A stretch of 64,000 bases of DNA. Source: Candidatus Nealsonbacteria bacterium. GTDB taxonomy: Bacteria > Patescibacteriota > Minisyncoccia > Minisyncoccales > JANBVM01. A model generated the notes under the pieces. The model did no database searches. It was not told where the DNA came from and saw only the letters and a list, made by a program, of their open reading frames with translations. Shown here one piece after another: positions 1,992 through 34,073 of this stretch. The position numbers were made by a program, and so were the translations under genes. Numbering within the stretch: position 1 is the first letter of the stretch; each line of letters starts with the position of its first letter. The DNA lies in the NCBI GenBank assembly GCA_047456295.1, contig CP179887.1:495159-559158 (forward strand). The letters are read 5' to 3'.

Positions 1992-1992
1992 T

Positions 1993-6922: not shown

Positions 6923-7291
6923 CTATTCACCCAGGGCTTTTTTGATTTTCTTTACCACTTCTTTTAAGCCGTAATAGGCTTTTATCAGATAGGTTGTAGC
7001 CCCGAGTTCAAGTGCCCTATCCACTTCCTCTATTGATTCCAGGTTGGTTAAAACAATTACCGGGATATCTTTTGTTTCCTCGTCTTGTTTTAACTTTTTC
7101 AAAACGTCAAAACCATGAATCTTGGGCAAGATGAGGTCAAGTAGAATCAAATCAGGTTTTTTGCTCTTGGCCATCTTTAAACCAGTCTCTCCGTCAAGAG
7201 CTGGAATTGTCTCGTACCCCTCTGTCTTTAAAATATCACCAAGGGTTTTTTGGAGGGCAGATTCGTCTTCAATAAAGAGAATTGTTTTCAT
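6923..7291 (-). CDS. Single-domain response regulator (CheY-like receiver)
   Basis: 122 aa with an FIEDE acidic pocket, phospho-acceptor context DLILLDLILP, and a conserved T and K. Confidence 0.9.
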   Translation of the reverse strand: MKTILFIEDESALQKTLGDILKTEGYETIPALDGETGLKMAKSKKPDLILLDLILPKIHGFDVLKKLKQDEETKDIPVIVLTNLESIEEVDRALELGATTYLIKAYYGLKEVVKKIKKALGE

Positions 7292-7295
7292 ATTA

Positions 7296-14071: not shown

Positions 14072-14095
14072 AAAAAATGTCCGTGTTTGACGGAC
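14072..14095 (-). terminator. Rho-independent terminator after plsY
   Basis: On the minus strand, gtccgt-caaac-acggac is followed by a T run. Confidence 0.55.
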
Positions 14096-14115: not shown

Positions 14116-14787
14116 TTATCTTTTTGTCAATTTTCTAATTATTCTTTTTATTCTTAATTCCAGATAAGGTATATCATCATCAAAGATTAAACGGTTTCTT
14201 AATAAAACACCTTTGTTTTGAGCTTTTTTAATTTCTTCTATGGGACTTAATCTTTTAATGAAAATAGGTATTAATGATATTAAACCCAGCAGTCCTCCTG
14301 TTTCAAACTGGTTTTGACAGACTGACAAGACTATGAAGGTTATTAAAAATAAGATGGTGCCAATGGAAGCATTCCAGACCAAAGCCAATATAACAGGGAC
14401 AATTAAAGAAAGCCCCAGTATCCTGGTTGAAAGAGATAAGGCAGCCCCTACAAAGGTTCCGATTCCCCTGCCGCCTGCAAACCTTAAAAAGCAGGACCAG
14501 TTGTGACCGGTTACAGCAGCTACCCCTGACAGAACCTGAATCAAGACAGGCAAGCCAAGACACTGGGCTGCCATTACAGCTAAGAATCCCTTACCTACAT
14601 CAAGGAATCCGGTCAATACTCCCTGCCACTTACCGATGTTCTTGAACACATTGGAACCAGAGGTCTTTCTCCAGCCCACCTCCAGGATATTCTTTTTTGT
14701 TGAAAGCCTGGTGATTATATATCCAAAAGGAATGGAACCTAAGACATATGAGAAGATAATCCAGAAAAGATTGAAATAATTTTCCAT
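14116..14787 (-). CDS. plsY: Glycerol-3-phosphate acyltransferase PlsY-like (acyl-phosphate dependent)
   Basis: 223 aa, polytopic. The N-terminal GSIPFGYIITRL, a SGSNV motif and HNWSCFLRFAGGRG resemble PlsY motifs. Confidence 0.7.
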   Translation of the reverse strand: MENYFNLFWIIFSYVLGSIPFGYIITRLSTKKNILEVGWRKTSGSNVFKNIGKWQGVLTGFLDVGKGFLAVMAAQCLGLPVLIQVLSGVAAVTGHNWSCFLRFAGGRGIGTFVGAALSLSTRILGLSLIVPVILALVWNASIGTILFLITFIVLSVCQNQFETGGLLGLISLIPIFIKRLSPIEEIKKAQNKGVLLRNRLIFDDDIPYLELRIKRIIRKLTKR

Positions 14788-14842
14788 AAACTAAAAAAAA
14801 TGAAAAGGTTAAAAATATTGTTTAAATACCTGGTCTTGAATT

Positions 14843-16405
14843 TTAAAGGGGTATGTTTCCGTGTTTTCTGGCAATCTTACTTTCTCTTTTATTGACAAGG
14901 GATTCCAGACACTTGATTAAAACAATCCTGGTGTCTTTGGGATGAATAATCATATCCACCTGGCCGAGTTTGGCTGCCTGGTAAGGATTGAGAAAGTATT
15001 CTTTTAGTTCTTGAATTTTTTCTTTCTCCAGTTTTTTTGGATCTTTGCTTTTTAATAATTCTTTCTTGTAAATGATTCTTGCTGCTTGTTCTGGACCCAT
15101 TACTGCAATCTGAGCTGATGGCCAGGCAATAACAATGTCATATCCCAGGTGTCTTGAAGCCAAAGCAATATATGCTCCCCCAAAAGCCTTTCTTAAAATT
15201 AAGCTGATTTTAGGAACAGTAGCTTCAGCAAAAGCATACAAGACCTTGGCACCATGGCGGATGATTCCCTTCTTTTCTTGGTTGGTGCCAGGAAGATAAC
15301 CAGGGGTATCCACCAGATTGATTAAAGGAATGTTGAATGAATCACAGAACCTGACAAAACGAGCAATCTTATCAGAGGAATTAATATCAAGGGTGCCGGC
15401 CATAAATTTTGTTTGGTTTGCCACAATACCAACCACAGATCCTCCCAGTCTGGCAAAACCTATTATTGCGTTTAAGGCAAACCGGGATTGGATTTCAAAG
15501 AAAGACTTCTTATCAAAAACCTCTTCAATTAATTCTTTCATGTCATAGCTTTTTTCTTCTTTTTCCGGCACTATTTCCTGTAATCTGTAGTTTTCTTCTC
15601 TTTCAAAGAACTCAGCTAATATGCTTCTTTCTTTTGGAGGATCTTCCAGATTATTTTGAGGCAGATAAGAAAGAATCTTTTTTACTGCAAAAAAACACTC
15701 TTTTTCAGAGTCAAAAGAAAAATGAGCGCAACCACTTTTTGAATTGTGGACATTGGCACCTCCCAAATCTTCAAAAGAAATCTTTTCTCCGGTTACTCCC
15801 TTAATGACCTCAGGTCCTGTGATATACATCTGGGAGATTCCCTGGACCATGAAGATAAAGTCTGACAGGCCAGGAGTATAACAGGCCCCTCCAGCTGAGG
15901 GTCCCACAATTACAGAGATTTGAGGAATAACCCCGGAAGCCTTAATCATTGCCCTAAAGATGGCAGCATAACCATCAAGACTGGATATGCCTTCCTGTAT
16001 CCTGGCTCCACCTGAATCAATGATACCTGTTACAGGACATCCATTTTTTCTAGCCAGATTAATGATTTTTACAATCTTTTTAGCATGCATTTCGCCCAGA
16101 GTCCCTCCTATTTTTGAAAAATCCTGGCTATAGATATAAATCTGGTTGTTATTCACTTTTCCAAAACCAGTAATTACTGCATCCCCTGGAAACTTTTTCT
16201 TATCTAATCCAAAATTATTAAACCTGGTTTCAACAAAAGGATCCAGTTCAACAAAACTGCCTGGATCCAAGAGCAGGTTGATTCTTTCCCTGGCAGTCAG
16301 TTTTCCTTTCTGGTGCTGCTTTTCAATCAGCTCGGGATTTTCCAGGTCTTTTATTTTTTTGTTTAATTTCTCCCTTTCTTTTTCAAAAGCCATATTTTTA
16401 TTCAC
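14843..16405 (-). CDS. Acyl-CoA carboxylase carboxyltransferase subunit (fused alpha/beta, PccB/AccD family)
   Basis: 520 aa with KGKLTARERINLLLDPGSF and IDSGGARIQEG carboxyl-transferase signatures. Confidence 0.9.
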   Translation of the reverse strand: MNKNMAFEKEREKLNKKIKDLENPELIEKQHQKGKLTARERINLLLDPGSFVELDPFVETRFNNFGLDKKKFPGDAVITGFGKVNNNQIYIYSQDFSKIGGTLGEMHAKKIVKIINLARKNGCPVTGIIDSGGARIQEGISSLDGYAAIFRAMIKASGVIPQISVIVGPSAGGACYTPGLSDFIFMVQGISQMYITGPEVIKGVTGEKISFEDLGGANVHNSKSGCAHFSFDSEKECFFAVKKILSYLPQNNLEDPPKERSILAEFFEREENYRLQEIVPEKEEKSYDMKELIEEVFDKKSFFEIQSRFALNAIIGFARLGGSVVGIVANQTKFMAGTLDINSSDKIARFVRFCDSFNIPLINLVDTPGYLPGTNQEKKGIIRHGAKVLYAFAEATVPKISLILRKAFGGAYIALASRHLGYDIVIAWPSAQIAVMGPEQAARIIYKKELLKSKDPKKLEKEKIQELKEYFLNPYQAAKLGQVDMIIHPKDTRIVLIKCLESLVNKRESKIARKHGNIPL

Positions 16406-16916
16406 TGATTGTTTTCAGTTGTTTTTTAATATATTTTACAATTTCCTTCAAGACCTTTTCATTATCTATTCTTTTACCTAATTCTATTTTAAGGGATGTG
16501 GCAATATTTTCCAGTTCTTTTGGGAATGTATCAATATTGGTGTTTAAACCAATGCCCATTATTGAGAATTTAACATCTGAACCCACTACTGTTTCAGTTA
16601 AGATGCCAGCTATCTTTTTTTGGTTAAGATAAACATCGTTTGGCAGTTTTATAAAGGGTTCCATTTTAAACCTTTCTTTTATTACCTTTGCCACCACAAA
16701 GGCAGCCAAGAGGGTAAGGGTCTGCAGATCATCAATAGTGCTTTTGGGCAGAATGATTGAAAAATAAAGGCCGCCCTTTGGAGAAAACCAGTAATTTTTC
16801 TTTCTGCCGTATCCAGCAGTTTGTTCTTGAGCCAAGACAACCAGCCAGGGTTCAGGTTTTAGTTTTTTTACCAAGGTGTTTGTTGAAGAAACACGTTTAT
16901 ATCTTTTTATTTTCAT
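16398..16916 (-). CDS. birA: Biotin--protein ligase (catalytic domain only)
   Basis: 172 aa. GYGRKKNYWFSPKGGLYFSIIL matches the BPL GRGRxxRxWxSPxGxxLyxS motif. It sits between the BCCP and CT genes. Confidence 0.8.
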   Translation of the reverse strand: MKIKRYKRVSSTNTLVKKLKPEPWLVVLAQEQTAGYGRKKNYWFSPKGGLYFSIILPKSTIDDLQTLTLLAAFVVAKVIKERFKMEPFIKLPNDVYLNQKKIAGILTETVVGSDVKFSIMGIGLNTNIDTFPKELENIATSLKIELGKRIDNEKVLKEIVKYIKKQLKTISE

Positions 16917-17302
16917 TATTCCAAAACAATTAAAATATCCCCTTCTTTGACCTTTTGGTCTTTTTTGACAGAGACCTTTTTTACCCTTCCTTCAAAGTCA
17001 GAGATTATTTCATTTTCCATTTTCATTGCTGACAATAAAATAACTTTTTTACCTTTTTTAATAACATCCCTTTCTTTGACAAAAACCTCTGAGATTATTC
17101 CGGCAATGGGAGCCTTAATCTTCTTTTCAGTAAAATTTCTTTTGGGAAGAGAGGATTTAGCAACCAAAAGCTTTTCTTTTTCCTCTTCTTTTTGTTTAAA
17201 AACAAATTCCTCTCCTTGTACTCTTATTTTTACCGTGTCTCTGTCTGTTTCTTGGATTTCAACAGTATATTCCTTCCCCTTTATGTTTAACTTCAGCTTC
17301 AT
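16916..17302 (-). CDS. accB: Biotin carboxyl carrier protein
   Basis: 128 aa with the biotinyl-lysine motif SAMKMENEI in a lipoyl-like fold. Confidence 0.85.
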   Translation of the reverse strand: MKLKLNIKGKEYTVEIQETDRDTVKIRVQGEEFVFKQKEEEKEKLLVAKSSLPKRNFTEKKIKAPIAGIISEVFVKERDVIKKGKKVILLSAMKMENEIISDFEGRVKKVSVKKDQKVKEGDILIVLE

Positions 17303-17304
17303 AA

Positions 17305-18843
17305 TTATTCTTTGAACATTTTTAATCTTTCTGCCATTACCCAGTTTGAGACAAGACTCCTTTTTTCAGGCAGGGTTTTGTCCAACCTCAGGCTTTTATA
17401 AATCTGAAAGACTATTTGGGCAATTTCTTTTTTCTCCATATCCTTTATTTTAACAGGCATTCTGATGCAGGGCTGGGGTGACAATTTTTCCAGGATATTG
17501 CTTTTTTCAATAAAATTGGTGGTAAAGTTTCCTTTTAGAAAATCTTCATTCTTTAAAAGAAGCTTGAATAAGGGAATGGTGGTTGGAACGCCCTCAATAA
17601 CTATTTCATCTAAAGCCCTTTTTAATCGAGAAATAGCTTCCTTCCTTGTTTTTCCATGAGCAATAACTTTTGCCAAAAGGGAATCAAAATAAGGATAAAT
17701 CTCCTGTCCTTCATGTAAAAAAGTATGCAAGAAGATTCTTTGACCTCCAGGGGGAATATATTTTTGGATTATTCCTGGGCTGGGCCGGAAATTCTTTTTG
17801 GGATCTTCGGCATTAATTCTTGCTTCCATTGCCCATCCATTAAAGAAGATATCATCTTGAGAAAAAGGAATACCCTGGCCCTGGGCAATCCTTATCTGCT
17901 GTTCTACTATGTCAATGCCGGTTACAGCTTCAGTCACAGGATGTTCTACCTGGAGCCTAGGATTGACTTCTAAGAAATAAAGATTTTTATTTTCATCTGC
18001 CAGGAATTCAACCGTACCTGCCCCTTGATATCTTAAGTATTTACCCAAATTTACTGCCAACATTCTTATTTTTTTTCTTTCTTGTTCATCAAGAAAAGGA
18101 GAGGGTGCTTCTTCAAACAGTTTTTGGAACCTTCTTTGAATGGTGCATTCCCTTTCTCCTAAATGAACGACCTTATTTCTGTCTCCCAATATCTGAACCT
18201 CGATATGTCTTGCATTAGGAAGGTGTTTTTCAAGAAAGAAATCTGTTTCAGAAAAAGCTGTAGCTATCTGTCTTTGGATTCCAGCTGATATGGTGAAAAG
18301 GTCTCCAAAATCAATCTTACCATTGATTACCCGAATGCCAATTCCTCCTCCTCCTTTCTGGGCTTTTAAAATAAAAGGAGGTTTAATCTCTTTCACCCAT
18401 TTCACCAAATCCTTTTTTGTTTTAATCGGGCCCTTGCTGGCCGGCAGGGTGGGAATACCCATTTTTCGGGCTATCTTTTTTGCTTCAATTTTATCTTCCA
18501 GTTTTTTTAAAGTCTTAAAATGAGGTCCAATAAACCAGATTTTGTTCTTCTGGCAGAGTTTGGCAAACCTCCAGTTTTCAGCCAAAAATCCGTAACCTGG
18601 ATGAATGGCATCAACCCTGGCTTTTTTGGCAATTTCAATAATCTTTTTCTTATCGAGATAACCTGCTGCCCCTTCTTTTTCCAAAAAATAATATTCATCA
18701 GCCATCCTTGTTTCAAGGAAGTTTTGTTCTTGGCCTGGAAAGGGACAGAGAGCAACTGTTTTAATATCCATTTCCTGGCAGGTCCTGATTATCCGCAGGG
18801 CAATCTCGCCCCGATTGGCAATGAGAATTTTTTTAATTGTCAT
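17305..18843 (-). CDS. accC: Biotin carboxylase (ATP-grasp) with C-terminal extension
   Basis: 512 aa with KKILIANRGEIALRIIRT, GGGGIGIR and EVNPRLQVEHPVTE. Confidence 0.92.
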   Translation of the reverse strand: MTIKKILIANRGEIALRIIRTCQEMDIKTVALCPFPGQEQNFLETRMADEYYFLEKEGAAGYLDKKKIIEIAKKARVDAIHPGYGFLAENWRFAKLCQKNKIWFIGPHFKTLKKLEDKIEAKKIARKMGIPTLPASKGPIKTKKDLVKWVKEIKPPFILKAQKGGGGIGIRVINGKIDFGDLFTISAGIQRQIATAFSETDFFLEKHLPNARHIEVQILGDRNKVVHLGERECTIQRRFQKLFEEAPSPFLDEQERKKIRMLAVNLGKYLRYQGAGTVEFLADENKNLYFLEVNPRLQVEHPVTEAVTGIDIVEQQIRIAQGQGIPFSQDDIFFNGWAMEARINAEDPKKNFRPSPGIIQKYIPPGGQRIFLHTFLHEGQEIYPYFDSLLAKVIAHGKTRKEAISRLKRALDEIVIEGVPTTIPLFKLLLKNEDFLKGNFTTNFIEKSNILEKLSPQPCIRMPVKIKDMEKKEIAQIVFQIYKSLRLDKTLPEKRSLVSNWVMAERLKMFKE

Positions 18844-19474
18844 AGATATAAGATTTTTGAGACAGCTTGGATATTTCCTGCATTATTTTATTGGTAATGT
18901 CTCTTAAAAACATGTGGTATTTTTCTTGATTATTTTCTGTCTGGTTTAACAGTTTTCTTTCTTCTGAAAAACACAGAGGTTTCCCTATTTCAATTATTCT
19001 TTTAAGTGAATTTTCTGCCTTCCTTATTCCAAAAGGAATTACAGGGACCCCTGATTTGAGAGCTAATTCTGCAATGCCGGTCTTTCCCTTCAAGAGCTTT
19101 TTTCTGGAATTAGTATTCCCTTCTGGAAAAAGAACGACAATCTTTTTATTTTCCAGGTTTTTAATTATTTTTTTAATAATACCTCCCCTTTTTCCCCTTT
19201 TCCTGTTTATCACAATAGCACCAGAAGAATAATAAAGAAGTCCTGACTGCAGCAAGGTTTTAAAACTATCCATTGCAGCAACAAAACGCAGGTCTCTTGT
19301 TCTTTCTTTTAAGACATCTCCTATAAACCAATAATCCAGACTATTGATGTGGTTTGAGGCAATAATAAAACTGTTCCCTTTGGGAATATTTTCCTTTCCT
19401 TTTATTTCCCGGGTAAAAAGACCTGCAACAGGAAAAAGAAATAATTTACAAAGATAAACAAAAAAAGTTTTCAT
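18833..19474 (-). CDS. plsC: 1-acyl-sn-glycerol-3-phosphate acyltransferase family protein
   Basis: NHINSLD (HX4D) and FPEGNT motifs. Confidence 0.8.
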   Translation of the reverse strand: MKTFFVYLCKLFLFPVAGLFTREIKGKENIPKGNSFIIASNHINSLDYWFIGDVLKERTRDLRFVAAMDSFKTLLQSGLLYYSSGAIVINRKRGKRGGIIKKIIKNLENKKIVVLFPEGNTNSRKKLLKGKTGIAELALKSGVPVIPFGIRKAENSLKRIIEIGKPLCFSEERKLLNQTENNQEKYHMFLRDITNKIMQEISKLSQKSYIYDN

Positions 19475-19505
19475 GATTAGTATTAAATCGTTAAATTAAA
19501 CCTTA

Positions 19506-20168
19506 TTAGTCTAGTTCTGATTTCAAAGAAGCAATTTTTTCCATCACCTTGTCTGTAATCTTAACAAGAATCTCTTTGTTTTCTTCGGAATCCTGACTAA
19601 TCTTTTTTATTCTTTCAAGCTCTTTTGTAAAATAAAGGGGTTTGCCGATATTGATTTTAATCAACCTTTCTATTTTTAGTTTTCCTCCAGGAGGCATAAG
19701 TTTGAAGGTTCCTTTAATTGCTGTGGGCAGAATAGGAACGCCTGTTTCCAAAAAAATCTTGGCTATTCCCCATTTACCCCTGCTCATTTCACCTGTTCTG
19801 GTCCTCGTGCCTTCAGGATAGATTATAAGACTGTCTCCTTTTTTTAAAACCTCAATGGCTTCTGTTACTACTTTTTTCTTTGATTCCTCCTTTTTCCTGT
19901 TTAAACGGATGACCCCGGCAATGAAATACAGAATATATAAAAACAGTTTGGTAAAGCCCTTATAGGTATCGGTCTGGCCAATAAAGTGATATCTCCTGGG
20001 AACACAGACATAAGCTGTGACCAATTCATCTAAATGACTCTGATGGTTTGTGGCCAGGATGAAATTTCCCCTGGGAATATTCTCCCATCCCCTCACTTCT
20101 TTTATAAATAATCTTTTAACAATAGGAACAAGAAAGATTTTACAAAACCAAGAGACTGCCCTATTCAT
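19506..20168 (-). CDS. plsC: 1-acyl-sn-glycerol-3-phosphate acyltransferase family protein (second copy)
   Basis: NHQSHLDE (HX4D) and YPEGTRT motifs. Confidence 0.85.
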   Translation of the reverse strand: MNRAVSWFCKIFLVPIVKRLFIKEVRGWENIPRGNFILATNHQSHLDELVTAYVCVPRRYHFIGQTDTYKGFTKLFLYILYFIAGVIRLNRKKEESKKKVVTEAIEVLKKGDSLIIYPEGTRTRTGEMSRGKWGIAKIFLETGVPILPTAIKGTFKLMPPGGKLKIERLIKINIGKPLYFTKELERIKKISQDSEENKEILVKITDKVMEKIASLKSELD

Positions 20169-21103
20169 AGTTTTTCTGCTCTTTCTTTTATGATTCTTGA
20201 GGCATCTTTTATTGTGTCTTGTATTATCTCCTCACAGCTTTTAATTTCAGAGATTCCTCCGGCACAAAGCCCGCAGAGCAGTGGGGCTTGGGATACGTTT
20301 CCGCTTTCTATCTTTGAACTGGAAAATTTATCTGCTCTTAATTCCTCGGGAAAGGGATTTTTTTCCTCCAGCTTTTGAACCCTTTTGGTCAGTTCGTTTT
20401 CTATTGCCCTTACTGGATGGCCGGTGAACCTTGCCACCACAACAATATTTTCATCGCTTGCCTCTAAAACAGCCTTTTTATAATTCTCATGAATCTGGCA
20501 TTCCTTGCTGGCTAAAAACCTTGTTCCCATCTGGACTCCATCAGCCCCCAACAAAAAGACAGCAGCAGTGGTTTTTCCGTCATAAATGCCCCCAGCAGCA
20601 ATCAAAGGAATCTTTTGTATTGATTTTTTTGCCTGTGGAATGAGAACCATTGTGGTGATTTTGCCAATGTGGCCTCCAGATTCAAGCCCTTCCATTACCA
20701 CGGCATCAGCTCCGTTTTGCTCCATCTTTTTAGCCAATCTTGTTAAAGAAACCACAGGGATAATTTTAATTCCCACTTTCTTCAAATAGGGGAATAAGAC
20801 AAGGGGATTGCCCCCTCCGGTGAAAACAACAGGAATCTTTTGTTTAATCACCACTTTTATTAGTTCAACCACCTTTGGATTTTGCATTAAGAGATTAACC
20901 CCAAATGGTTTATCGGTCAGACTCTTTGTCTTTTTAATCTCTTGTTCCAGCCAGTCAGGAGGAAGGAATCCAGAACCAATGACGCCCAGTCCCCCGGCAT
21001 TGGAGACAGCTGAAACCAGGGCTGAATCTGAAACCCCGGCCATTCCTCCCTGGATTATGGGATATTTAATGTTTAAGAGTTGAGTGAGTTTAGTGCTGAA
21101 CAT
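20165..21103 (-). CDS. fabK: NMO/FabK-type FMN enoyl reductase (nitronate monooxygenase fold)
   Basis: 312 aa with IIQGGMAGVSDSALVSAVSNAGGLGVIG and AAGGIYDG. There is a 4-nt overlap with downstream plsC. Confidence 0.8.
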   Translation of the reverse strand: MFSTKLTQLLNIKYPIIQGGMAGVSDSALVSAVSNAGGLGVIGSGFLPPDWLEQEIKKTKSLTDKPFGVNLLMQNPKVVELIKVVIKQKIPVVFTGGGNPLVLFPYLKKVGIKIIPVVSLTRLAKKMEQNGADAVVMEGLESGGHIGKITTMVLIPQAKKSIQKIPLIAAGGIYDGKTTAAVFLLGADGVQMGTRFLASKECQIHENYKKAVLEASDENIVVVARFTGHPVRAIENELTKRVQKLEEKNPFPEELRADKFSSSKIESGNVSQAPLLCGLCAGGISEIKSCEEIIQDTIKDASRIIKERAEKL

Positions 21104-21162
21104 GTTATTTATAGATTTGATTCAAGTTAAATTTTTTATGTGGTTTAAAAACAACACAATCT

Positions 21163-22659
21163 TTAAGAGGTAATGAGTAAGGGTTGATGTTTTAAAATTT
21201 CATTTGCCTCTGTTACCAATTCCTGAATTAGTTCTTTTACTGAGACTATTTTATTAACCCTCCAGACATTGGAACCTGCAAAAACCAGTCCATTTTCCAG
21301 GTCGCCTTTCCGGGCATTTTCTAAAACTTCCAGGATACAATAGCTTTTATCACAAACTATTCCTATACACCCCTCGCATTTTTTAGGATCTGGTTTTGGC
21401 GCTTTCCCTTCTAAAATCTTTTTAACCAAAGGGGTTTTAATCGCCCTGCCCGGTAATCCAACAGGAGAATGAATAATCACAACATCTTCTTTCTTAGCTC
21501 TCAGGTAGGCCTCTTTAAATTTTTGATGGACATCGCATTCCTTGGTTGCCACAAATCTGGTTGCCATCTGAACCCCTTTGGCTCCTGCCCTTAACATTTC
21601 TACAATGTCTTTTCCATCATATATGCCTCCAGCAGCAATTACAGGGGTCTTGACTTCTTTTACCACCTCTTTGACAATATCAATGGTTTTTCTGAAAGGA
21701 TGGCCCTTTGGAAATCCGAGGTGGCCTCCGGCGTCCATTCCCTCAACAACTATGGCTGCTGCCCCCATAGCTTCTCCTTTTTTGGCAACCTTGACAGATG
21801 AAGCCATTGAGAATATGGGAACATTGTATTTTCTCCCTAAATCAAAAATATCTTCTCTAAATCCTGCCCCCTGAATAATTAAATCAACACTTTCTTCCAT
21901 GGCTGCTTTCACCAATTTAATAAAGTGGCTTGCCACACCCATGATATTTATTCCAATAATTCCTTTGGGTCCGGCAATCTTTTTAGCCTGTTTTATTTCT
22001 GATTTAACCTCATTTGGGTCTTGCATTCCAGAAACAGCAACAATACCCACTGCCCCTTGTTTAGCCACGTTTCCAGCTAAATTATGCAATGAGACCCTTA
22101 CTGCCATTCCTCCCTGGATAATGGGAATCTTGGCAAAAATGTTTCCAATCCTTAAAGGAGGCAGTTTTGTTTGGGTCAGGGGTTTTCCCTGTCTTTCCCT
22201 CAGGTGTTTTTCTTTAAACTCATGTTTGTCCACAACAGCAACCGTAAACCTTACTTCACATTTTTTCTCGTCTTTCACAAATGCCTCTCCTTTAAAATTA
22301 GCAATTTTATAACCATAAAATCCCAGAAGTTTAACCTCATATTTTATTTTGTCTCCAGGAAAAATGGGTTTGTCAAATTGGGCACTTCTCACTCGATAAG
22401 CCAGGAGATGTTTTTGTTTATGACCCTCTCCCATTTCCTTTCTTAAGAGTATGCTTCCTGTCTGGGCCAATCCTTCTACAAGCAAGACACCTGGCATAAT
22501 TGGAAAATCAGTGAAATGACCTTTAAAGTAAGGGTCTTTAACAGAAGTGTATTTATAAGCAACAATGGTATTTCCTTTGATATCCTCTACCTCATCCACC
22601 CATAAAAAAGGATCGTCATAAGGAATGATTTTTTTAATTTGGTCTTTATTCATCATCAT
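21163..22659 (-). CDS. Fusion protein: FabZ-type hot-dog dehydratase (N) + NMO/FabK-type enoyl reductase (C)
   Basis: The N-terminal part PYDDPFLWVDEV...YFKGHFTDFPIMPGVLLVEGLAQTG is FabZ/FabA-like. From about aa 175, IPIIQGGMAVRVS...AAGGIYDGKD...MATRF is the NMO TIM barrel. It is a continuous 498-aa ORF. Confidence 0.8.
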   Translation of the reverse strand: MMMNKDQIKKIIPYDDPFLWVDEVEDIKGNTIVAYKYTSVKDPYFKGHFTDFPIMPGVLLVEGLAQTGSILLRKEMGEGHKQKHLLAYRVRSAQFDKPIFPGDKIKYEVKLLGFYGYKIANFKGEAFVKDEKKCEVRFTVAVVDKHEFKEKHLRERQGKPLTQTKLPPLRIGNIFAKIPIIQGGMAVRVSLHNLAGNVAKQGAVGIVAVSGMQDPNEVKSEIKQAKKIAGPKGIIGINIMGVASHFIKLVKAAMEESVDLIIQGAGFREDIFDLGRKYNVPIFSMASSVKVAKKGEAMGAAAIVVEGMDAGGHLGFPKGHPFRKTIDIVKEVVKEVKTPVIAAGGIYDGKDIVEMLRAGAKGVQMATRFVATKECDVHQKFKEAYLRAKKEDVVIIHSPVGLPGRAIKTPLVKKILEGKAPKPDPKKCEGCIGIVCDKSYCILEVLENARKGDLENGLVFAGSNVWRVNKIVSVKELIQELVTEANEILKHQPLLITS

Positions 22660-23396
22660 ATTGTCAATCCTCCATTAATATTAATGACAGTACCTGTTAT
22701 GAAATCTGCTTTTTCTGAAGCCAAAAAAGCAACCAATTCAGCTATTTCTTCTGGTTTGCCAAATCTAGCCAGGGGAGTTATTTTTTTTACCTGCATCTTG
22801 AATCCTTCTGGCAGGTTTTCGGTAAGCCTGGTTTCAATAAAACCTGGGGCTATAGCATTTACCGTTACCTTAAATCTTCCCAGTTCCTTGGATAGAGATT
22901 TGGTAAAACCAATGATACCTGCTTTGGCTGCAGCATAGTTTGTTTGACCGAAATTCCCCACCTGGCCGACCAAAGAAGACATATTAATAATTTTTCCCTG
23001 GTTTTGAATAATTAAAGGCAGGCTGGCCTTGGCACAGTTGAATACACCTGTTAAATCAATGTCAATTACCTTTTGCCAGTCCTCTTTTGTCATTTTTGCC
23101 AGGGTTTTATCTTTACAGATTCCTGCATTATTGACCAGGACATTCAATCTACCGAAGTCTTTTTGTATCTGCTGGACCATTTTTTCCACTTCTTCTAGTT
23201 TTGAAACATCAGCCAAAAAATACCGGGCTTTCCCTCCTTTTTTCTCAATCTCTTGTTTTAGTGCTTTTAAATTGTCTTCTTGGCTGGATATGTCATTTAA
23301 AGCCACTTCAGCTTCCAGAGAAGCAAATTTTAAAGCAATAGCCCTGCCAATTCCTTGAGAAGAACCAGTGATTAAAACAACTTTATTTTTAAACAT
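22656..23396 (-). CDS. fabG: 3-oxoacyl reductase (SDR, FabG-like)
   Basis: 246 aa with TGSSQGIGRAIA, NNAG and YAAAKAG. Confidence 0.88.
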   Translation of the reverse strand: MFKNKVVLITGSSQGIGRAIALKFASLEAEVALNDISSQEDNLKALKQEIEKKGGKARYFLADVSKLEEVEKMVQQIQKDFGRLNVLVNNAGICKDKTLAKMTKEDWQKVIDIDLTGVFNCAKASLPLIIQNQGKIINMSSLVGQVGNFGQTNYAAAKAGIIGFTKSLSKELGRFKVTVNAIAPGFIETRLTENLPEGFKMQVKKITPLARFGKPEEIAELVAFLASEKADFITGTVININGGLTI

Positions 23397-23438
23397 AATG
23401 AATATATATAATGTAGCTTGGTTTCTACGACCTTAAAG

Positions 23439-24062
23439 TTATAATGTTTTGGCCTTTGTTTTTTCAAAAACCATTCTGTTAAAAGATAAGATTAAACCTG
23501 CTAAAAATATCTTTAATGTATCTCCTAAAATAAAAGGATAGAGACCGACAGTTAATATTTTTGAAATTCCAACAAATCTTGCTAACCACAAAAGCCCGGG
23601 AATATAAATAACAATGTTTCCAGCCAGCATTATCAAGACAGCTGTAGTAGTATTTCTGTTCCATCCTTTTTCAACCAAACCTCCGGTTAAATAGGCAGCC
23701 AATACAAATCCTAGGATATAGCCGAAGGTGGGACTCAGGATATATATTAATCCCCCTCCCCGGGAAAACCAGGGAAGGCCGATTAATCCTGCCATCAAAT
23801 AAGTGAGTTGAGAAGCTGCTCCTTTTTTCTGCCCTAATAAAGCTCCGCTCAAGAGAACCACCACTGTCTGCATGGTTAGAGGAACCAGACTTATTTCAAT
23901 CTTTAATTTAGCAGAGATGCCCGTTAAAATGGCAAAACCCAGAACCAACACAATATCTTTTGCCAATACCAAAACCTTGTCTTTAATCTCTGGCAAGACT
24001 GTTTCAATCAATATTGGATTTTTAGCATTAGAATTTTTCAACATCATATTGCAGTTCCTCAA
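23439..24062 (-). CDS. bioY: Biotin transporter BioY
   Basis: 207 aa, polytopic, with VPLTMQTVVVLLSGALLG and SPTFGYILGF typical of BioY. The start is uncertain, with alternative Met codons 5-6 codons in. Confidence 0.85.
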   Translation of the reverse strand: MRNCNMMLKNSNAKNPILIETVLPEIKDKVLVLAKDIVLVLGFAILTGISAKLKIEISLVPLTMQTVVVLLSGALLGQKKGAASQLTYLMAGLIGLPWFSRGGGLIYILSPTFGYILGFVLAAYLTGGLVEKGWNRNTTTAVLIMLAGNIVIYIPGLLWLARFVGISKILTVGLYPFILGDTLKIFLAGLILSFNRMVFEKTKAKTL

Positions 24063-25086
24063 CCTGTCTTCCTATCACCGGAATATCTTCGATTTTAATA
24101 CTTTTAAGGTATCTTGGCAAATCTTTTATCATTGTGATTTCAGCAAAAACCCTGTCTATATTAAAAGAATTAAAGCCAGCTAATATCAAGCCCAGAAGAG
24201 TGGTATAGCCGGTTGATCTCTGAATTGATATTGCTTCAGCCACGGTTAAATAATCAGGCAAAATATCTTGGATTTTTCTTAGCAAATCTTGATATTCATG
24301 AAGATATGTTAGAGAAAGATAGGATTCTTTTTTGAGAAACTTAAAAACATTTTGCCCGGCTCCCTTTATTTTTAATTTTGGATCAATCTTTAATATAGGT
24401 AGATTAATTATCAAATCATTGTTAAAGAGTTCTTGGGAAATCTCAAATACAATACCGTCTTTTTCTTTTTTTATAAAATTCGTTTTAGCCAGATCCAAAG
24501 GAGTGATTGTATTTTTAAGACAAACAGCCAATAGCTGAGATTTCTGGGCAGAAGCTTCAATGGGAAAATCATTAAAACTCTGAGAAGCTACCTTAATGTT
24601 TTTAGGACTGACTCCTCTCTCAATTAAATACTTAATCATGCCTTCTAAGAACTGAGGACTGGTATTTTGGGCAAAATGAGGATGTTTGGGAGCAATAAGG
24701 GTGGGCAAAATCAGAATCCTGGAATTTTGACTAATTGCAGGTTTCCCTATTAAATCAATGACTTTTTCCATTGCTTCCAATATGTCATATTTTACCCGCC
24801 AGATTGAAACAGCTTCTTTTTTTTGAACAGGTTCTAATCTCAATTCCTCGCCCTCTTTGTATTCTTTAACTGATTTATGGCTCCATTTGTTGCCTTTTTC
24901 ATCTTCCAATAGCAGGACAAAATAAGGCACTGTGGGGTGGGAGATTGTAGGAATGTTAACCTTGGAAACACCGATTACCTTCATCTTTTTGCTTTTAACC
25001 CTTTCCAACTTTAAAAAACAATCAGGACATTTCTTGATTGGATACTGCCAGGTATTTTTACATTTTGAACATTGATAAAAAGCCAT
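24028..25086 (-). CDS. DUF35-like zinc-ribbon/OB domain fused to a DUF362-like domain
   Basis: The N-terminal part has CSKCKNTWQYPIKKCPDC (a C-x2-C...C-x2-C ribbon) followed by an OB-like VIGVSKVNIPT...YFVLLLEDEKGN. The C-terminal about 250 aa have DUF362-like strings: ILILPTLI, DLIINLPILKIDPKLKIKGAGQNVFKFL, LTVAEAISIQRSTGY. The assignment is from remembered family patterns. Confidence 0.6.
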   Translation of the reverse strand: MAFYQCSKCKNTWQYPIKKCPDCFLKLERVKSKKMKVIGVSKVNIPTISHPTVPYFVLLLEDEKGNKWSHKSVKEYKEGEELRLEPVQKKEAVSIWRVKYDILEAMEKVIDLIGKPAISQNSRILILPTLIAPKHPHFAQNTSPQFLEGMIKYLIERGVSPKNIKVASQSFNDFPIEASAQKSQLLAVCLKNTITPLDLAKTNFIKKEKDGIVFEISQELFNNDLIINLPILKIDPKLKIKGAGQNVFKFLKKESYLSLTYLHEYQDLLRKIQDILPDYLTVAEAISIQRSTGYTTLLGLILAGFNSFNIDRVFAEITMIKDLPRYLKSIKIEDIPVIGRQVEELQYDVEKF

Positions 25087-25106
25087 AATTGATTTAAGAT
25101 GATTCT

Positions 25107-25595
25107 ATGGAAACTCTTCTTCTGCCAGAAAAACTTAGACTGGAATTAAGAAAGATTTGGGGAATACCCATATTTGGAGATGAAAGGAAGGTCATTAAAG
25201 AATATGAAAGGATTGTTAAGAATAAAAAATTTAAAAAAATCATTACTGTTGGGGACCGCTGTTCTCTAAGTCTTTCTTCTGATATTAAGATTTTTGACGG
25301 AAAAATCAATAGGAAGAGAATAAAGAAATTTCCACCTTTTTCCCTCAGGTGTTCAAATCCGCCGGGAACCATTCAAAAAGAGGTCTGGACAGTAATTGAA
25401 AAAGCAATTAAAGAAAACAAGAATGTTTTTATTGACGGTGAGGAAGATCTCCTGGTGATACCAGCTGTCTTACTTTCAGAAGAAAACAATGCTGTGGTTT
25501 ATGGTTTTTTAGACAAAGGAATTTGTTTAATCGAGGTTTCTAAAGAAATAAAAAAAAGCTTAAAAGAACTTTTAAAAAGATTTCAAACTAAATAG
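25107..25595 (+). CDS. DUF359 family protein = archaeal-type GTP-dependent dephospho-CoA kinase homolog
   Basis: 162 aa with ITVGDRCS, IFDGKINRKR, NPPGTI and IDGEEDLLVIPAVLL..VVYG, which match the conserved DUF359 blocks. Confidence 0.72.
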   Translation: METLLLPEKLRLELRKIWGIPIFGDERKVIKEYERIVKNKKFKKIITVGDRCSLSLSSDIKIFDGKINRKRIKKFPPFSLRCSNPPGTIQKEVWTVIEKAIKENKNVFIDGEEDLLVIPAVLLSEENNAVVYGFLDKGICLIEVSKEIKKSLKELLKRFQTK

Positions 25596-26712
25596 TTTTT
25601 TTAAGAATGTGAACGGTAACGCTGCCCCCTGTTCCGCCAATATTATGACACAGTCCAATCTCAGGAGCAGGATTTATCTGTCTTTCATTGCATCTCCCCC
25701 GCATCTGACCAACAATTTCATATATCTGGGCAAAACCAGTAACAGAAATGGGATGTCCTTTGGCTTTCAAGCCTCCTGAGGTATTGATGGGTAATGTACC
25801 TCCTAAATTTACCCTACCTGACCTTATTAATTCTGCTCCTTTTCCTATCTGAGCAAATCCCAAATCCTCATAAGAGAATAATTCTACTGAAGTAAAGGCA
25901 TCATGAACCTCGGCAGCCTCAATGTCTTCTGGTCTTAACCCTGCTTGTTCAAAAGCCTGTTTTGCCGCCATCCTTGTGGCTTTAAAATGATGGGTTTGTT
26001 TTCTTCCAAAGGTTAAGATATAGTCAGTGGCAAAACCAGAACCGATAATCTCAATGTCGGTTTTTTCTTTTGAAAGAATGACAGCTCCCCCTCCATTAAC
26101 AGACAGAGAGCAATCCAGCAGCCGCAGGGGCGAGGTAACAACAGGAGAATTCTTAATCTTTTCTAGAGAAACAGGACGCTTATAATAATAGGCTTTGGGG
26201 TTTAAGACAGCATTCTTATGGTTCTTAAAAGCAATTAAAGCTAAATCATCCATGGTGGCTTTGTATCTTTTCATATATTGCTGCCACACCAAGGCATTCT
26301 GGACCGGAAAGAGCAATCCTTCTGGTTGTTCAATCACCCTTTCTGCTGCAGACAGTATCCAGTCTACTGTAATCTCGCTGCGATTATCTACCAATTTTTC
26401 TCCGCTCAGCACCAGGACATTATTAAAGCCAAGGCGATTGGCTGTCCATACTGCTACCCCTCCGCCCGAACAGACAGACGGGGTTTCAATAATAGGAACA
26501 TTGGTCTTAAACAGATCAGAAATCAGAGAGACTTTATGGGTCTGGTGTTCGCCGCCAGCAGCACTGGAAATAGCTGACAAGACAATAGCATCAATATCAG
26601 AAATTTTCATTCTGGCATCTTCCAGGGCTTCCAGGCTAGCTTCAAAAGCCTGCTGCCACCAGGCTTTTTGAGAATAATTAAATTTTGTTAATCCCACTCC
26701 TTTTATATACAT
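25588..26712 (-). CDS. Thiolase-like condensing enzyme (archaeal/SCP-x-type acetyl-CoA acetyltransferase family)
   Basis: 374 aa with a nucleophile context TPSVCSGGGVAV, EVHDAF, and C-terminal CHNIGGTGGSVTVHIL. Confidence 0.85.
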   Translation of the reverse strand: MYIKGVGLTKFNYSQKAWWQQAFEASLEALEDARMKISDIDAIVLSAISSAAGGEHQTHKVSLISDLFKTNVPIIETPSVCSGGGVAVWTANRLGFNNVLVLSGEKLVDNRSEITVDWILSAAERVIEQPEGLLFPVQNALVWQQYMKRYKATMDDLALIAFKNHKNAVLNPKAYYYKRPVSLEKIKNSPVVTSPLRLLDCSLSVNGGGAVILSKEKTDIEIIGSGFATDYILTFGRKQTHHFKATRMAAKQAFEQAGLRPEDIEAAEVHDAFTSVELFSYEDLGFAQIGKGAELIRSGRVNLGGTLPINTSGGLKAKGHPISVTGFAQIYEIVGQMRGRCNERQINPAPEIGLCHNIGGTGGSVTVHILKKTI

Positions 26713-26732
26713 AATATAGGTAATTTATTTTA

Positions 26733-28514
26733 CTAAATTGGCGCCCATCCGACAATCAAGGTCCCAGGGCCTGCAGCAGAAAATAGAGGAGGATTCAAAG
26801 AGATAAAAGGAATTTCAACCTTTATTTTCCCTTTCAACATTTTCTTTAATTTGTTGGCTGTTTGTAAATTATCGGAATGGTTAATTATGACCCTGATTTT
26901 TTTACCCTGTTTTCTTGCTCTTTTACTTTCTTTTAAAATTTTCTTCAATAAGGCTTCAGCCTTATCCTGAGCAAAGACTACCCCCCCCTTTCCAATTACT
27001 CCATTTTTTAATTCCATTATGGGATGAAATTTTAATTTTTTCATTCTCCTTATCCAGTTGGCCTGACTCTCAGTGATTTTACCAGAAGCCTCTATCCATT
27101 TGGGATCTTCAAAAACAAGATAAAGATGAGTTTTAGATATTTCTTTTTTAAGCTCTTTAATGATCTCATTAATTTCTCTTTGTTCTTGAATTAATTCAAT
27201 TGCCCTCAAGACTAAAAGTGCCTCACCGGCAGCCCCGCTTAAAGAATCAAGGATAAATATGCTTTTTGGTTTCTGAATCATTGTTTGGGCTTGTTTGGCT
27301 GAGTCATAGCATCCTGAAACCTTAGAAGACACGGTAATACACAAAACCTTGTCAAATTTTTTCAATTGTTTTTTAAAAGCATTGAAATAGGACCCTGGCG
27401 TTGCCTGAGAAGTCTTTGGAAAGATTTTAATTCCTCTTTTGTCTGCTTCTCTTAACTTTTCATAAATATTCTTTCCTGGCAAATCCTTTTCAGGCGGCCA
27501 GTCTAATTTAGCAAAAACCAATTCAATTTGGTATCTCTCAATGATTTTTGGCAAGAGGGTTGATATGTCCTCAGTAACAATTCCTATGGAAATCTTTCTA
27601 ACCGATTCCTCTCCTACCACTTCTTTTGCCATATCTTCAATTCTTAAACTTTGAATTTGACCTGTCTGTCTGAGAACATTCTTTACTTCGTCTGGATAAT
27701 CAGTATGGATGTGAATTTTCATTTTATTTCCGCCCTGGACAATATCTATGGAGTTTCCCAGTTTTCTTAATTTTTCTTGAAGTGCTCGTGCCTCAATCTT
27801 GGGATTTTCTATTAATGAAACAACTTCATAGCGGTTTGAAAGCAGCTGAACAAATCTTTTTATCTTTTTTGAAGCTTTTTCTTCTTTTTTCGCTTTAGCC
27901 TGTTTCCTGCCCTTTAAGGAATCCAGATAACTTTCTAAAATAATTAAAAAACCCAATCCTCCGGCATCAACAACATTAGCTTTCTTAAAGATTTCCATTT
28001 TCTCCCTGGTTTCCAGTAGAGCCTCGCTTGCCTTTTTTTCAGCTTTTTTGAAAACCCCAATAATATCCTTTTCCTTTTCTGCCTCTTGTTTGAATACCGA
28101 GGCTGCAGCTTCAATTACATCTAATATTGTTCCTTCTTTGGGGTCTTGGATGCTTTCCCTGGCTCTTTCTGCTCCTTTTTCAAAAGCCAAGGCTATTTTT
28201 TTGATGTCAACTGGTTCTTTATTCAGTTCAGGCAAAAAACCAGCTAAAAAACCGGTATATATTACACCGGCATTTCCCTGGGCGCAGGTTAAGGCTCCAT
28301 CTAAAATAACCTCTGAAATCTCTTTTAAATCTTTAAACTCTTTTCCTTGAATTGCCTCTTTTATTCCCAGTAAGGTTTTTGTAAGATTGTTTCCCGTATC
28401 CTGGTCTGGTACTGGAAAAATATTGATTTTGTTGATTTCTTCTTTTTCTCTTTCTATTCTTTCATGGGAAAGGAGCATCATTTCCTTCAACTCTTTTTGA
28501 GTTAGGTATTGCAT
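26733..28514 (-). CDS. DAK2/DhaL-domain protein fused to a DegV-like fatty-acid-binding domain (fatty acid kinase-like)
   Basis: The N-terminal part has PVPDQDTGNNLTKTL (DAK2 motif). The C-terminal about 280 aa have ISIGIVTEDISTL, PKTSQATPGSYFNAF and ITVSSKVSGCYDSAKQA (DegV motifs). Confidence 0.75.
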   Translation of the reverse strand: MQYLTQKELKEMMLLSHERIEREKEEINKINIFPVPDQDTGNNLTKTLLGIKEAIQGKEFKDLKEISEVILDGALTCAQGNAGVIYTGFLAGFLPELNKEPVDIKKIALAFEKGAERARESIQDPKEGTILDVIEAAASVFKQEAEKEKDIIGVFKKAEKKASEALLETREKMEIFKKANVVDAGGLGFLIILESYLDSLKGRKQAKAKKEEKASKKIKRFVQLLSNRYEVVSLIENPKIEARALQEKLRKLGNSIDIVQGGNKMKIHIHTDYPDEVKNVLRQTGQIQSLRIEDMAKEVVGEESVRKISIGIVTEDISTLLPKIIERYQIELVFAKLDWPPEKDLPGKNIYEKLREADKRGIKIFPKTSQATPGSYFNAFKKQLKKFDKVLCITVSSKVSGCYDSAKQAQTMIQKPKSIFILDSLSGAAGEALLVLRAIELIQEQREINEIIKELKKEISKTHLYLVFEDPKWIEASGKITESQANWIRRMKKLKFHPIMELKNGVIGKGGVVFAQDKAEALLKKILKESKRARKQGKKIRVIINHSDNLQTANKLKKMLKGKIKVEIPFISLNPPLFSAAGPGTLIVGWAPI

Positions 28515-34065: not shown

Positions 34066-34073
34066 AAATGTAT

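Follow-up and report, generated by a model that had tools for sequence, protein, structure and literature searches.

Can a bacterium build fatty acids without an acyl carrier protein (ACP), and if so, which of its enzymes would join the carbon chains? The question is raised by a gene cluster on the minus strand (14116-26712) of a 64,000-nt stretch of contig CP179887.1 (the whole stretch is hereafter called the window), which comes from a Candidatus Nealsonbacteria genome of the Candidate Phyla Radiation (CPR). On the evidence presented below we favor, with moderate confidence, the reading that this cluster is a coenzyme A (CoA)-based, ACP-independent operon for fatty-acid synthesis or elongation that is probably driven by malonyl-CoA and joined to phospholipid assembly. 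A thiolase-fold enzyme and the partner protein encoded close to it would then act in place of FabD, ACP, and the ketoacyl-ACP synthases (KAS). A hybrid CoA-based system had been suggested earlier from the sequence alone (hereafter, the original prediction); the cluster without ACP, FabD, and KAS genes, the DUF35-type thiolase clade, and the conserved pairing all held up, but a direct feed into PlsY did not, and the idea itself turned out not to be new.

Organization of the gene cluster

Families were assigned with Pfam and NCBIfam, and PDB sequence matches, hhalign, and Foldseek were used for selected genes. Over 14116-28514 there are 15 closely spaced minus-strand genes, neighbors lying no more than about 60 bp apart or overlapping by no more than that. 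In order of transcription, the elements of the cluster are:

26733-28514 (-): fatty-acid kinase fusion FakA::DegV/FakB (Pfam Dak2, FakA-like_M, and DegV)
25588-26712 (-): thiolase-fold condensing-enzyme candidate, 374 aa (PF22691 Thiolase_C_1, 3e-43)
25107-25595 (+): DUF359 protein, convergent with the thiolase gene (PF04019, 1.7e-27)
24028-25086 (-): partner protein, putative zinc ribbon/OB module fused to DUF362, 352 aa (Pfam: DUF362 only)
23439-24062 (-): BioY biotin transporter component (PF02632, 2.9e-40)
22656-23396 (-): FabG-type 3-ketoacyl reductase, a short-chain dehydrogenase/reductase (SDR) (TIGR01830, 300.6 against a cut-off of 297.75; adh_short_C2, 7e-68)
21163-22659 (-): FabZ domain fused to a FabX-like FMN flavoprotein (Pfam FabA and NMO)
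20165-21103 (-): FabK-type FMN enoyl reductase, an NMO protein (PDB 7l00, 1.3e-88; TIGR03151, 365 bits against a cut-off of 453)
19506-20168 (-): PlsC-family acyltransferase 2 (PF01553, 8e-27; TIGR00530, 3e-21, below cut-off; HX4D and PEGT motifs)
18833-19474 (-): PlsC-family acyltransferase 1 (PF01553, 1e-26)
17305-18843 (-): biotin carboxylase (BC), ATP-grasp (Biotin_carb_N, CPSase_L_D2, Biotin_carb_C; PRK08591, 3e-163)
16916-17302 (-): biotin carboxyl carrier protein (BCCP) (Biotin_lipoyl, 7e-15; AMKM biotinylation motif read in the sequence)
16398-16916 (-): biotin-protein ligase (BPL), short BirA type without helix-turn-helix domain (BPL_LplA_LipB, 6e-23)
14843-16405 (-): single-chain acyl-CoA carboxyltransferase (CT) of the PccB/MmdA type (PF01039 Carboxyl_trans, 8e-181, positions 1-493/493)
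14116-14787 (-): PlsY, acyl-phosphate:glycerol-3-phosphate acyltransferase (PF02660, 1e-30; TIGR00023, 1e-27, below cut-off)
14079-14095 (-): terminator-like hairpin with a T-run, after plsY and ahead of nusA (consensus scan)

Pfam confirmed the genes of the original prediction at their minus-strand positions. Its description of a nearly unbroken run is right as to the tight spacing, but a plus-strand gene for a DUF359 protein interrupts the run, wedged between the thiolase and partner genes and sharing 8 nt with the 3' end of the thiolase gene. This family, which we take to be that of the archaeal GTP-dependent dephospho-CoA kinase, is found at the same position in the compared loci L001-L006 and is absent in L007 and in Minisyncoccus archaeiphilus, where the genes for thiolase and partner are immediate neighbors. 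A scan for promoter and terminator consensus sequences gave counts not above those of shuffled sequences overall, and the hairpin after plsY was the only one noted. Activity motifs can be read in the FabZ domain (His/Glu), in FabG (Ser-Tyr-Lys triad), and in both NMO domains (GGH histidine), and HX4D is present in both PlsC proteins.

Search for ACP-pathway genes

Our search for the missing genes covered the 64-kb window plus about ±10 kb around the cluster in related genomes. By Pfam, neither ACP (PP-binding) nor AcpS, FabD, KAS I/II/III, or PlsX was found among nearly all window ORFs of at least 100 aa, and no ORF scanned in the window matched the Acyl_transf_1, ketoacyl-synt, or ACP_syn_III families. 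Similarly, tblastn of E. coli proteins against the window returned nothing credible for acpP, acpS, fabD, fabH/F/B, or plsX; a full-length AcpP alignment at window positions 273-494 (E = 1.3) was rejected, its translation being a PilM-like pilus protein fragment. An ACP HMM run on six-frame ORFs of at least 40 aa from the window and 24 related loci (332 kb) reached a best E of 1.5. A hidden ACP was also considered in the biotin carboxylase, whose C-terminus is extended by 65 residues, and rejected (no DSL-type motif and no ACP HMM match). The three kinds of search therefore agree with the original prediction that these genes are missing from the window. HMG-CoA synthase, which the prediction had named as a neighbor that would speak against it, was found neither in the window nor in the CPR clusters, and the same is true of crotonase and 3-hydroxyacyl-CoA dehydrogenase (HCDH).

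Published genome surveys point in the same direction. No AcpS, FabD, or PlsX was found in Nealsonbacteria genomes (Probst 2020, PMC7242380), and for the complete genome of M. archaeiphilus only AccC, FabK, FabG, a FabA-like protein, and acyl-CoA synthetase were listed, the pathway being termed incomplete and unexplained (Nakajima 2025).

The thiolase as candidate condensing enzyme

In a PDB search, the best-matching solved relatives of the thiolase were 7yvy (1e-60), 6esq (5e-46), which is the Methanothermococcus thiolase of the thiolase/HMG-CoA synthase (HMGCS)/DUF35 complex, and BbsB (2e-43). The best NCBIfam model was PRK06064, followed by the Methanothermococcus equivalog AcCoTHIOL_METTL, both below cut-off. 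Together with the Thiolase_C_1 match and the retained nucleophile Cys and catalytic His residues, these results support membership in the archaeal/SCP2-type clade that works with DUF35 partners, as the original prediction had it. Its use of "archaeal" for the pair fits the clade but is too narrow, since thiolase/DUF35 pairs are also found in BbsAB, Ltp2/ChsH2, PhlABC, and MucABC.

In an alignment of CPR and DPANN sequences, Cys81, His270 (HDAF/HDxF), His320 (GHP), and His356-Asn357 were invariant. The CPR thiolases form an isolated clade, with the next representatives at 53% and 48% identity and the remainder at ~40% or lower when 1.84 billion representatives were searched exhaustively with HMMER. 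The variable residue of the HDxF motif tracks genomic context in a comparison that rests on about a dozen loci: it is Cys in mevalonate-linked and mycobacterial enzymes and Ala or Gly in enzymes with a short partner, such that thiolases linked to fatty-acid synthesis (FAS) or acyl-CoA carboxylase (ACC) genes carry HDAF or HDGF and mevalonate-linked thiolases carry HDCF. We take the HDCF cysteine of SCP2-type thiolases to be the base in acetyl-CoA deprotonation; without it, the site would retain Cys-His-His, as in the decarboxylating KAS enzymes. The Cys of an "LCHN" motif near the C-terminus, a conceivable replacement for the catalytic cysteine, was rejected because this position varies (C/V/T/S) among close homologues.

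The partner protein

The protein at 24028-25086 had been called a DUF35 protein, which profile-profile comparison bears out only as a remote likeness of its first ~90 residues; the only Pfam match is DUF362 (residues 124-315), a family of the LarA_N clan, and the Pfam DUF35 models gave no match to the N-terminus even at E<=10. The first ~90 residues consist of a CxxC...CxxC ribbon followed by OB-like beta strands, and the four cysteines (C6, C9, C20, and C23) are invariant in 30 homologues. The reference for hhalign consisted of seven DPANN proteins whose genes come immediately after those of mevalonate-type thiolases, and one of these proteins is Pfam-verified as DUF35 (PF01796, 2.7e-18; PF12172, 1e-5). 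Against this set the CPR module scored 92.2% probability (E 6e-7), rising to 95.9% (E 6e-9) when four divergent partners were added, and eight column-shuffled controls reached at most 1.5%.

An AlphaFold2 model built from 30 close homologues had a pLDDT of 58, and the Foldseek matches to it therefore count as weak support only: the C-terminal part resembled LarA-like racemases, and the N-terminal part weakly matched the DUF35 chains 7pxp_E and 6ok1_D (BbsA and ChsH2-DUF35). The N-terminus also had a weak PDB sequence match to 6htj, and homologues at JGI are labeled "uncharacterized OB-fold protein". Because the hhalign scores, the four invariant cysteines, the weak structural and PDB matches, and the OB-fold labels agree, they indicate that the partner joins DUF362 to a shortened module that is only remotely homologous to DUF35, rather than being a standard DUF35 protein.

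Conservation of the operon

Homologues of the thiolase and partner at 75-98% identity are named Candidatus Nealsonbacteria or Paceibacterales, which bears out the CPR context that had been read from the sequence, and an identical thiolase is present on a Logan contig (run DRR463593). The whole gene order recurs in the complete 653,831-bp genome CP179892.1 (thiolase identity 84%) and in the GTDB genomes L003, L004, L005, L007, and partly L006, with thiolase identities of 72-85% across L002-L007. The same operon is found in the cultured archaeal parasite M. archaeiphilus (MNSC_05910-06000; annotation table in the supplement of PMC12281837), as follows: thiolase (MNSC_05910), DUF362 protein with an eggNOG COG1545 match (05920), FabG (05930), FabA-like::NMO (05940), FabK (05950), PlsC (05960), AccC (05970), BCCP (05980), BirA (05990), and carboxyltransferase (06000). 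Just before it, MNSC_05890-05900 encode NuoEF-like and Fe-only hydrogenase (HndD-like) proteins, which could supply the flavoprotein and Fe-S reductases with reductant.

Seven cluster genes compared between the window and L002 gave dS > 1.2 and dN/dS of 0.05-0.16 (thiolase 0.067, partner 0.119), from which we conclude that these are working genes and not relics. The synteny in related genomes that the original prediction had proposed to check is thus present in L002-L007 and M. archaeiphilus, and in Nealsonbacteria-like Paceibacteria the operon is under purifying selection. Some variation was seen. Only a single PlsC is encoded in several genomes (PlsC 1 occurs in L003 and L004 and is missing from L002, L005, and L007), and L005 carries an ornithine-cyclodeaminase-like gene (6926-7903) between the FabZ fusion and FabK.

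Recurrent linkage to acyl-CoA carboxylase

More distant relatives of the thiolase were found in the following contexts:

L019, thiolase 53%: biotin carboxylase, FabA-like, thiolase, and a DUF362 protein of 380 aa that likewise begins with the ribbon/OB module, so that BC adjoins the FabZ-thiolase-partner genes
L021 (3075-13623), thiolase 39%: CT-BCCP-BC-BioY-(BPL)-thiolase-partner, then GNAT, AMP-binding, and iron-containing alcohol dehydrogenase genes, so that the full carboxylase/biotin set adjoins the thiolase and partner
L018, thiolase 39%, archaeal context: thiolase-partner-crotonase-HCDH
L024 (6664-9339), thiolase 40%, archaeal (histone, aIF5A): FabA-like, partner, thiolase, and SDR
L022 (CPR) and eight DPANN loci, thiolase 37-41%: mevalonate genes, with HMGCS beside the thiolase in most

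A short zinc-ribbon/OB partner follows the related thiolases in L019, L021, L018, and L024, and classical DUF35 proteins are found in the mevalonate-type DPANN loci. In L021 the thiolase pair is accompanied by the carboxylase/biotin module although the downstream chemistry is different; this module adjoins radical-SAM/SPASM genes and apparently serves another pathway. The four-gene operon of L024 looks like an archaeal mini fatty-acid synthase with a FabZ-type rather than a MaoC-type dehydratase, and a homologue search with its partner in a word-indexed database returned that protein alone.

We suggest malonyl-CoA as the probable extender because the carboxylase linkage recurs in independent contexts, because no other consumer of malonyl-CoA is evident, and because the HDCF cysteine is lost and an SCP2-thiolase-like protein related to this clade decarboxylates malonyl-CoA weakly. 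In the window, the carboxyltransferase matches the NCBIfam subfamily model TIGR01117 (4e-219, below cut-off).

The reductive enzymes

FabG is the only Fab enzyme above its NCBIfam equivalog cut-off. The FabZ domain (residues ~6-141) narrowly misses its own (NF000582, 111.8 against 113), and FabK is the best NCBIfam family for both NMO domains but below cut-off (365 and 190 against 453), so that the HMM thresholds by which the original prediction proposed to judge these enzymes are passed by the first and not by the other two. The stand-alone NMO protein is nonetheless a clear FabK, matching C. difficile FabK (7l00) over its full length, and the second FabK-like reductase of the original prediction is confirmed. 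MaoC-type dehydratase and medium-chain dehydrogenase/reductase (MDR)-type enoyl-CoA reductase are not the types found here; FabZ/FabA-type and NMO/FabK-type enzymes are present instead.

For the fusion protein, the earlier "FabZ::FabK-like" label holds for the FabZ half and for the NMO domain, but the flavoprotein half is nearer to H. pylori FabX, an FMN/[4Fe-4S] acyl-ACP dehydrogenase/isomerase (7e1q, 1e-53, its best PDB match), than to FabK (7l00, 5e-40). It carries a four-Cys insertion (C428, C431, C436, and C441) where FabX holds its cluster, the [4Fe-4S] site of C300, C304, C308, and C320 that stands in place of the NAD(P)H motif (7E1Q; PMC8626469). Three of the four cysteines align and the GGH histidine is kept. 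Unlike FabX, the protein is fused to FabZ, and T130 and R164, reported as pivotal for ACP docking in FabX (PMC8626469), are not conserved, the former being Glu and the latter falling in a deletion; this loss is only a hint that may point away from ACP use. FabX also uses O2 as electron acceptor, whereas the present organism comes from anaerobic habitats.

The glycerolipid end of the cluster

PlsY needs acyl-phosphate, and an acyl-CoA system therefore could not feed it directly, which is the part of the original prediction that was not borne out. The source of acyl-phosphate for PlsY without PlsX had already been raised as a question (Probst 2020, PMC7242380). A likely supplier, overlooked earlier, is the product of a co-oriented gene that lies 20 bp upstream of that for the thiolase. 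By PDB matches, residues 4-206 of this putative fatty-acid kinase fusion correspond to FakA, followed by the middle domain, and residues 309-590 to FakB1, such that a complete DegV/FakB domain stands where FakA's own C-terminal domain would be, in a single polypeptide. The DegV domain exceeds its NCBIfam cut-off (TIGR00762, 160 bits against 99.7), and the N-terminal half of YloV is also matched. The fusion is kept in L002, L003, and L006, and L002 has a separate DegV gene nearby too.

Two further lipid genes lie on either side of a PHP-domain gene:

29183-29737 (-): CarS-like/CdsA-like cytidylyltransferase (PF01864, 9e-30; PF01148, 2e-7)
30437-31036 (+): CDP-alcohol phosphatidyltransferase, head-group attachment (PF01066, 2.7e-17)

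The first is likely, from these matches, a CDP-diacylglycerol synthase. Since these genes adjoin the cluster, the lipid island runs to about 31036. The CarS-like enzyme (CDP-archaeol synthase family) is another archaeal-flavored enzyme in it.

Proposed mechanism and its standing

The mechanism proposed here is based on gene identities by homology, conservation, co-localization, and local gene absence, with substrates and chemistry inferred from them. BioY and the BirA-like ligase would supply and attach biotin, and BC, BCCP, and the PccB-type carboxyltransferase would form malonyl-CoA. The thiolase-fold enzyme would be held by the zinc-ribbon/OB module of the partner, as in other thiolase/DUF35 complexes, and an acyl group loaded on Cys81 would be condensed with a CoA-bound extender, most likely malonyl-CoA with decarboxylation. 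Keto reduction by FabG, dehydration by the FabZ domain, and enoyl reduction by FabK would then take place on CoA thioesters, and the FabX-like four-Cys flavoprotein may introduce a cis double bond for unsaturated chains or act as a second, Fe-S-linked enoyl reductase. The PlsC-family acyltransferases would consume acyl-CoA, FakA::FakB would convert free fatty acid to acyl-phosphate for PlsY, and the CarS-like cytidylyltransferase and the CDP-alcohol phosphatidyltransferase would complete the phospholipid.

Several points weigh against this mechanism. It is built on sequence comparison, and the genome-wide absence of ACP rests on the literature, our own scans covering the window and related loci. 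FabG, FabZ, and FabK are by homology ACP-dependent enzymes whose use of CoA is assumed, given that enzymes of these types accept CoA esters in vitro, and in L004 the cluster has a stand-alone FabZ (5952-6398) and no FabK or FabX. No thioesterase or acyl-CoA:phosphate transacylase turned up that would link acyl-CoA to FakA::FakB and PlsY. The partner fails the Pfam DUF35 thresholds and its structural model is poor (pLDDT 58). HDAF is also found in BbsB, a thiolytic enzyme, and in 7yvy, and the loss of the HDCF cysteine is therefore no proof of decarboxylative chemistry. Finally, the characterized Sulfolobus pathway appears not to use malonyl-CoA (Schmerling, bioRxiv 10.1101/2024.07.05.601840).

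The alternative that survives best is salvage or remodeling, in which scavenged fatty acids would be activated by FakA::FakB or an acyl-CoA synthetase and the thiolase and Fab enzymes would merely elongate or modify them. It would account for the FakA::FakB gene right beside the thiolase gene, for the long-chain acyl-CoA synthetase of M. archaeiphilus, and for the FabX-like domain, which suggests chain modification, and it agrees with the general view that CPR bacteria take lipids from their hosts. We regard it as unlikely all the same: a five-gene malonyl-CoA supply module would be costly in a ~0.65-Mb genome if elongation were occasional, and the enzyme set would suffice for the full cycle from acetyl-CoA. 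Moreover, relatives of this lineage grow on or parasitize methanogenic archaea, and these hosts are not known to have fatty-acyl membrane lipids to donate, which would in turn be a reason to keep a synthetic route.

Ordinary ACP-dependent type II synthesis, with acpP, acpS, fabD, fabH, and fabF elsewhere in the genome and an unrelated thiolase and partner, seems to us quite unlikely. The published surveys of Nealsonbacteria and M. archaeiphilus (the latter by the authors of its complete genome) list no AcpS, FabD, or PlsX and no ACP, FabD, or KAS, respectively; the operon holds even BioY and BirA in seven CPR loci but never acpP, fabD, or fabF; the thiolase-partner pair is fixed in it under strong purifying selection; and the ACP-docking residues of FabX are not kept. 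To be set against this are the FabG that passes and the FabZ and FabK that nearly match ACP-dependent equivalog models, the ~64 kb of genome examined, and the ease with which a small protein such as ACP is missed when metagenome-assembled genomes are annotated.

It is also improbable, and somewhat more so, that the condensation uses acetyl-CoA without decarboxylation, as in the Sulfolobus ketothiolase (KT)/DUF35 pair, driven by complex formation and with the carboxylase serving another purpose. The nucleophile Cys and both His residues are indeed retained. Yet, as noted above, malonyl-CoA has no other evident consumer, ACC genes recur beside this thiolase clade in three independent contexts, and it is these very thiolases that have Ala or Gly in place of the cysteine presumed to be the base. 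A degradative thiolase or one of another pathway (beta-oxidation-like, mevalonate, or ketone bodies) merely lying beside fab genes, as might be imagined from the 37-41% relatives in mevalonate operons (L022 and DPANN loci) and from the enoyl-CoA hydratase and HCDH genes beside the L018 relative, is very improbable, given the lack of HMG-CoA synthase, crotonase, and HCDH in the window and CPR clusters, the constant company of FabZ, a DUF362 partner, and BC at >=53% identity, and the otherwise purely biosynthetic cluster (ACC, PlsC, PlsY).

Beyond the CoA-based, ACP-independent operon that we favor, a stronger form can be put forward only tentatively from these sequences: that archaea-parasitizing Paceibacteria may possess a fully ACP-free, malonyl-CoA-driven synthase whose thiolase, left with a KAS-like Cys-His-His site by the loss of the HDCF cysteine, sits on a DUF35-like::DUF362 partner and takes over from FabD, ACP, and KAS, with FabG, FabZ, and FabK working on CoA esters and the fused FakA::FakB, PlsY, and PlsC assembling the phospholipid.

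Comparison with known systems

An archaeal synthase of KT, DUF35, reductase, and dehydratase has been reconstituted on CoA esters (Schmerling 2024); in S. acidocaldarius it comprises KT Saci_1121/DUF35 Saci_1120, an SDR, a MaoC dehydratase, and an MDR enoyl-CoA reductase (bioRxiv 10.1101/2024.07.05.601840). The present cluster resembles it in the lack of a detected ACP, the CoA carriers (as inferred here), the thiolase with a putative zinc-ribbon/OB partner, the FabG-like SDR, and the clustering of the genes. It differs in having a FabZ-type dehydratase, FMN-dependent FabK and FabX-like enzymes instead of an MDR reductase, and a truncated DUF35-like module fused to DUF362. Furthermore, the carboxylase, BioY, and BirA genes in the operon imply malonyl-CoA, which the Sulfolobus authors judged unlikely there, and the host is a bacterium in which the products would feed PlsC and PlsY.

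Bacterial type II FAS shares with the cluster the FabG, FabZ, FabK, PlsY, and PlsC homologues, the biotin-dependent carboxylase, and the operon organization. Unlike it, the window and related loci yielded no ACP, AcpS, FabD, KAS, or PlsX, the carboxyltransferase is a single PccB-type chain rather than AccA/AccD, and a thiolase-fold enzyme stands in the condensing place. With the archaeal thiolase/HMGCS/DUF35 complex (6ESQ/6ET9; PhlABC, MucABC) the cluster has in common the thiolase clade and an adjacent gene for a partner that is probably a remote DUF35 relative, and DPANN relatives at 37-40% identity have an operon exactly as in that mevalonate complex; in contrast, the cluster has no HMG-CoA synthase, carries HDAF rather than HDCF, has fab, acc, and pls neighbors, and encodes a partner that lacks the N-terminal helix region and bears DUF362. 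The Firmicutes FakA/FakB-PlsY-PlsC system is matched in the FakA kinase domain, the DegV/FakB domain, and PlsY as user of acyl-phosphate, but here FakA and FakB form one polypeptide and no PlsX/ACP is present to interconvert acyl-phosphate and acyl-ACP.

Direct condensation of malonyl-CoA with acyl-CoA is known from NphT7, plant ketoacyl-CoA synthases (KCS), and type III polyketide synthases, which belong to the KAS III/chalcone synthase branch and use a Cys-His-Asn triad. The proposed ACP-free decarboxylative Claisen condensation on CoA substrates would be like theirs, although the present enzyme is of the SCP2/archaeal thiolase branch and has a DUF35-like partner. Overall, we classify the system as a bacterial mosaic, an archaeal CoA-based scheme carried out with bacterial Fab, Acc, and Pls enzymes.

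Part of this picture is already published, namely the near-complete type II pathway with PlsY and PlsC in Nealsonbacteria and the proposal of an ACP-independent route (Probst 2020, PMC7242380), the restated puzzle (Nakajima 2025), and the archaeal synthase (Schmerling 2024). In our literature searches, no paper was found that names the thiolase and partner as the CPR condensing enzyme or links the clade to a carboxylase, nor one that mentions the FakA::FakB fusion or a FabX-like domain in such a setting. The novelty lies in the candidate condensing enzyme and in its repeated association with acyl-CoA carboxylase.

Other features of the window

Elsewhere in the window, GyrA (48587-52435, +; 1282 aa in total) contains an intein that bears a LAGLIDADG endonuclease, and a free-standing LAGLIDADG ORF (34068-34523, +) lies among tRNA genes. 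There are 21 tRNA genes in the 64 kb, a large share for the genome size, with tRNA-Ile(UAU) at 47487-47558 scoring best in an Rfam scan. Type IV pilus genes encode a PilM fragment, PilX_N and prepilin-like proteins, PilC, PilB, and several small T4SS_pilin-family ORFs (1-6866, -; 10430-11110, -; 33527-33931, +; 53066-54664, +) and are typical of CPR episymbionts. In a tRNA-rich intergenic stretch, a 58-aa ORF (37134-37310, +), possibly what is left of a gene, resembles the C-terminus of a histidine-kinase ATPase domain. A 337-aa protein (41923-42936, +) with weak N- and C-terminal matches to ketopantoate reductase (ApbA/PanE) could take part in CoA precursor synthesis or be a divergent NAD-dependent dehydrogenase.

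Implications for CPR lipid biology

CPR/Patescibacteria are the textbook case of bacteria that lack membrane-lipid synthesis of their own. The thiolase/partner pair offers a concrete candidate for the missing condensing step, and FakA::FakB a candidate source of acyl-phosphate; as the operon is present in the cultured M. archaeiphilus, labeling and enzyme reconstitution are possible. Should the stronger, fully ACP-free form hold, no CoA-based de novo fatty-acid synthase would have been known from a bacterium before it, and it would be an evolutionary mosaic of archaeal and bacterial lipid enzymes. If the proposed mechanism is confirmed, it would show ACP to be dispensable for bacterial fatty-acid synthesis. 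It would also explain where parasites of archaea obtain their ester lipids, and would provide a living bacterial/archaeal hybrid relevant to the debate on the "lipid divide".

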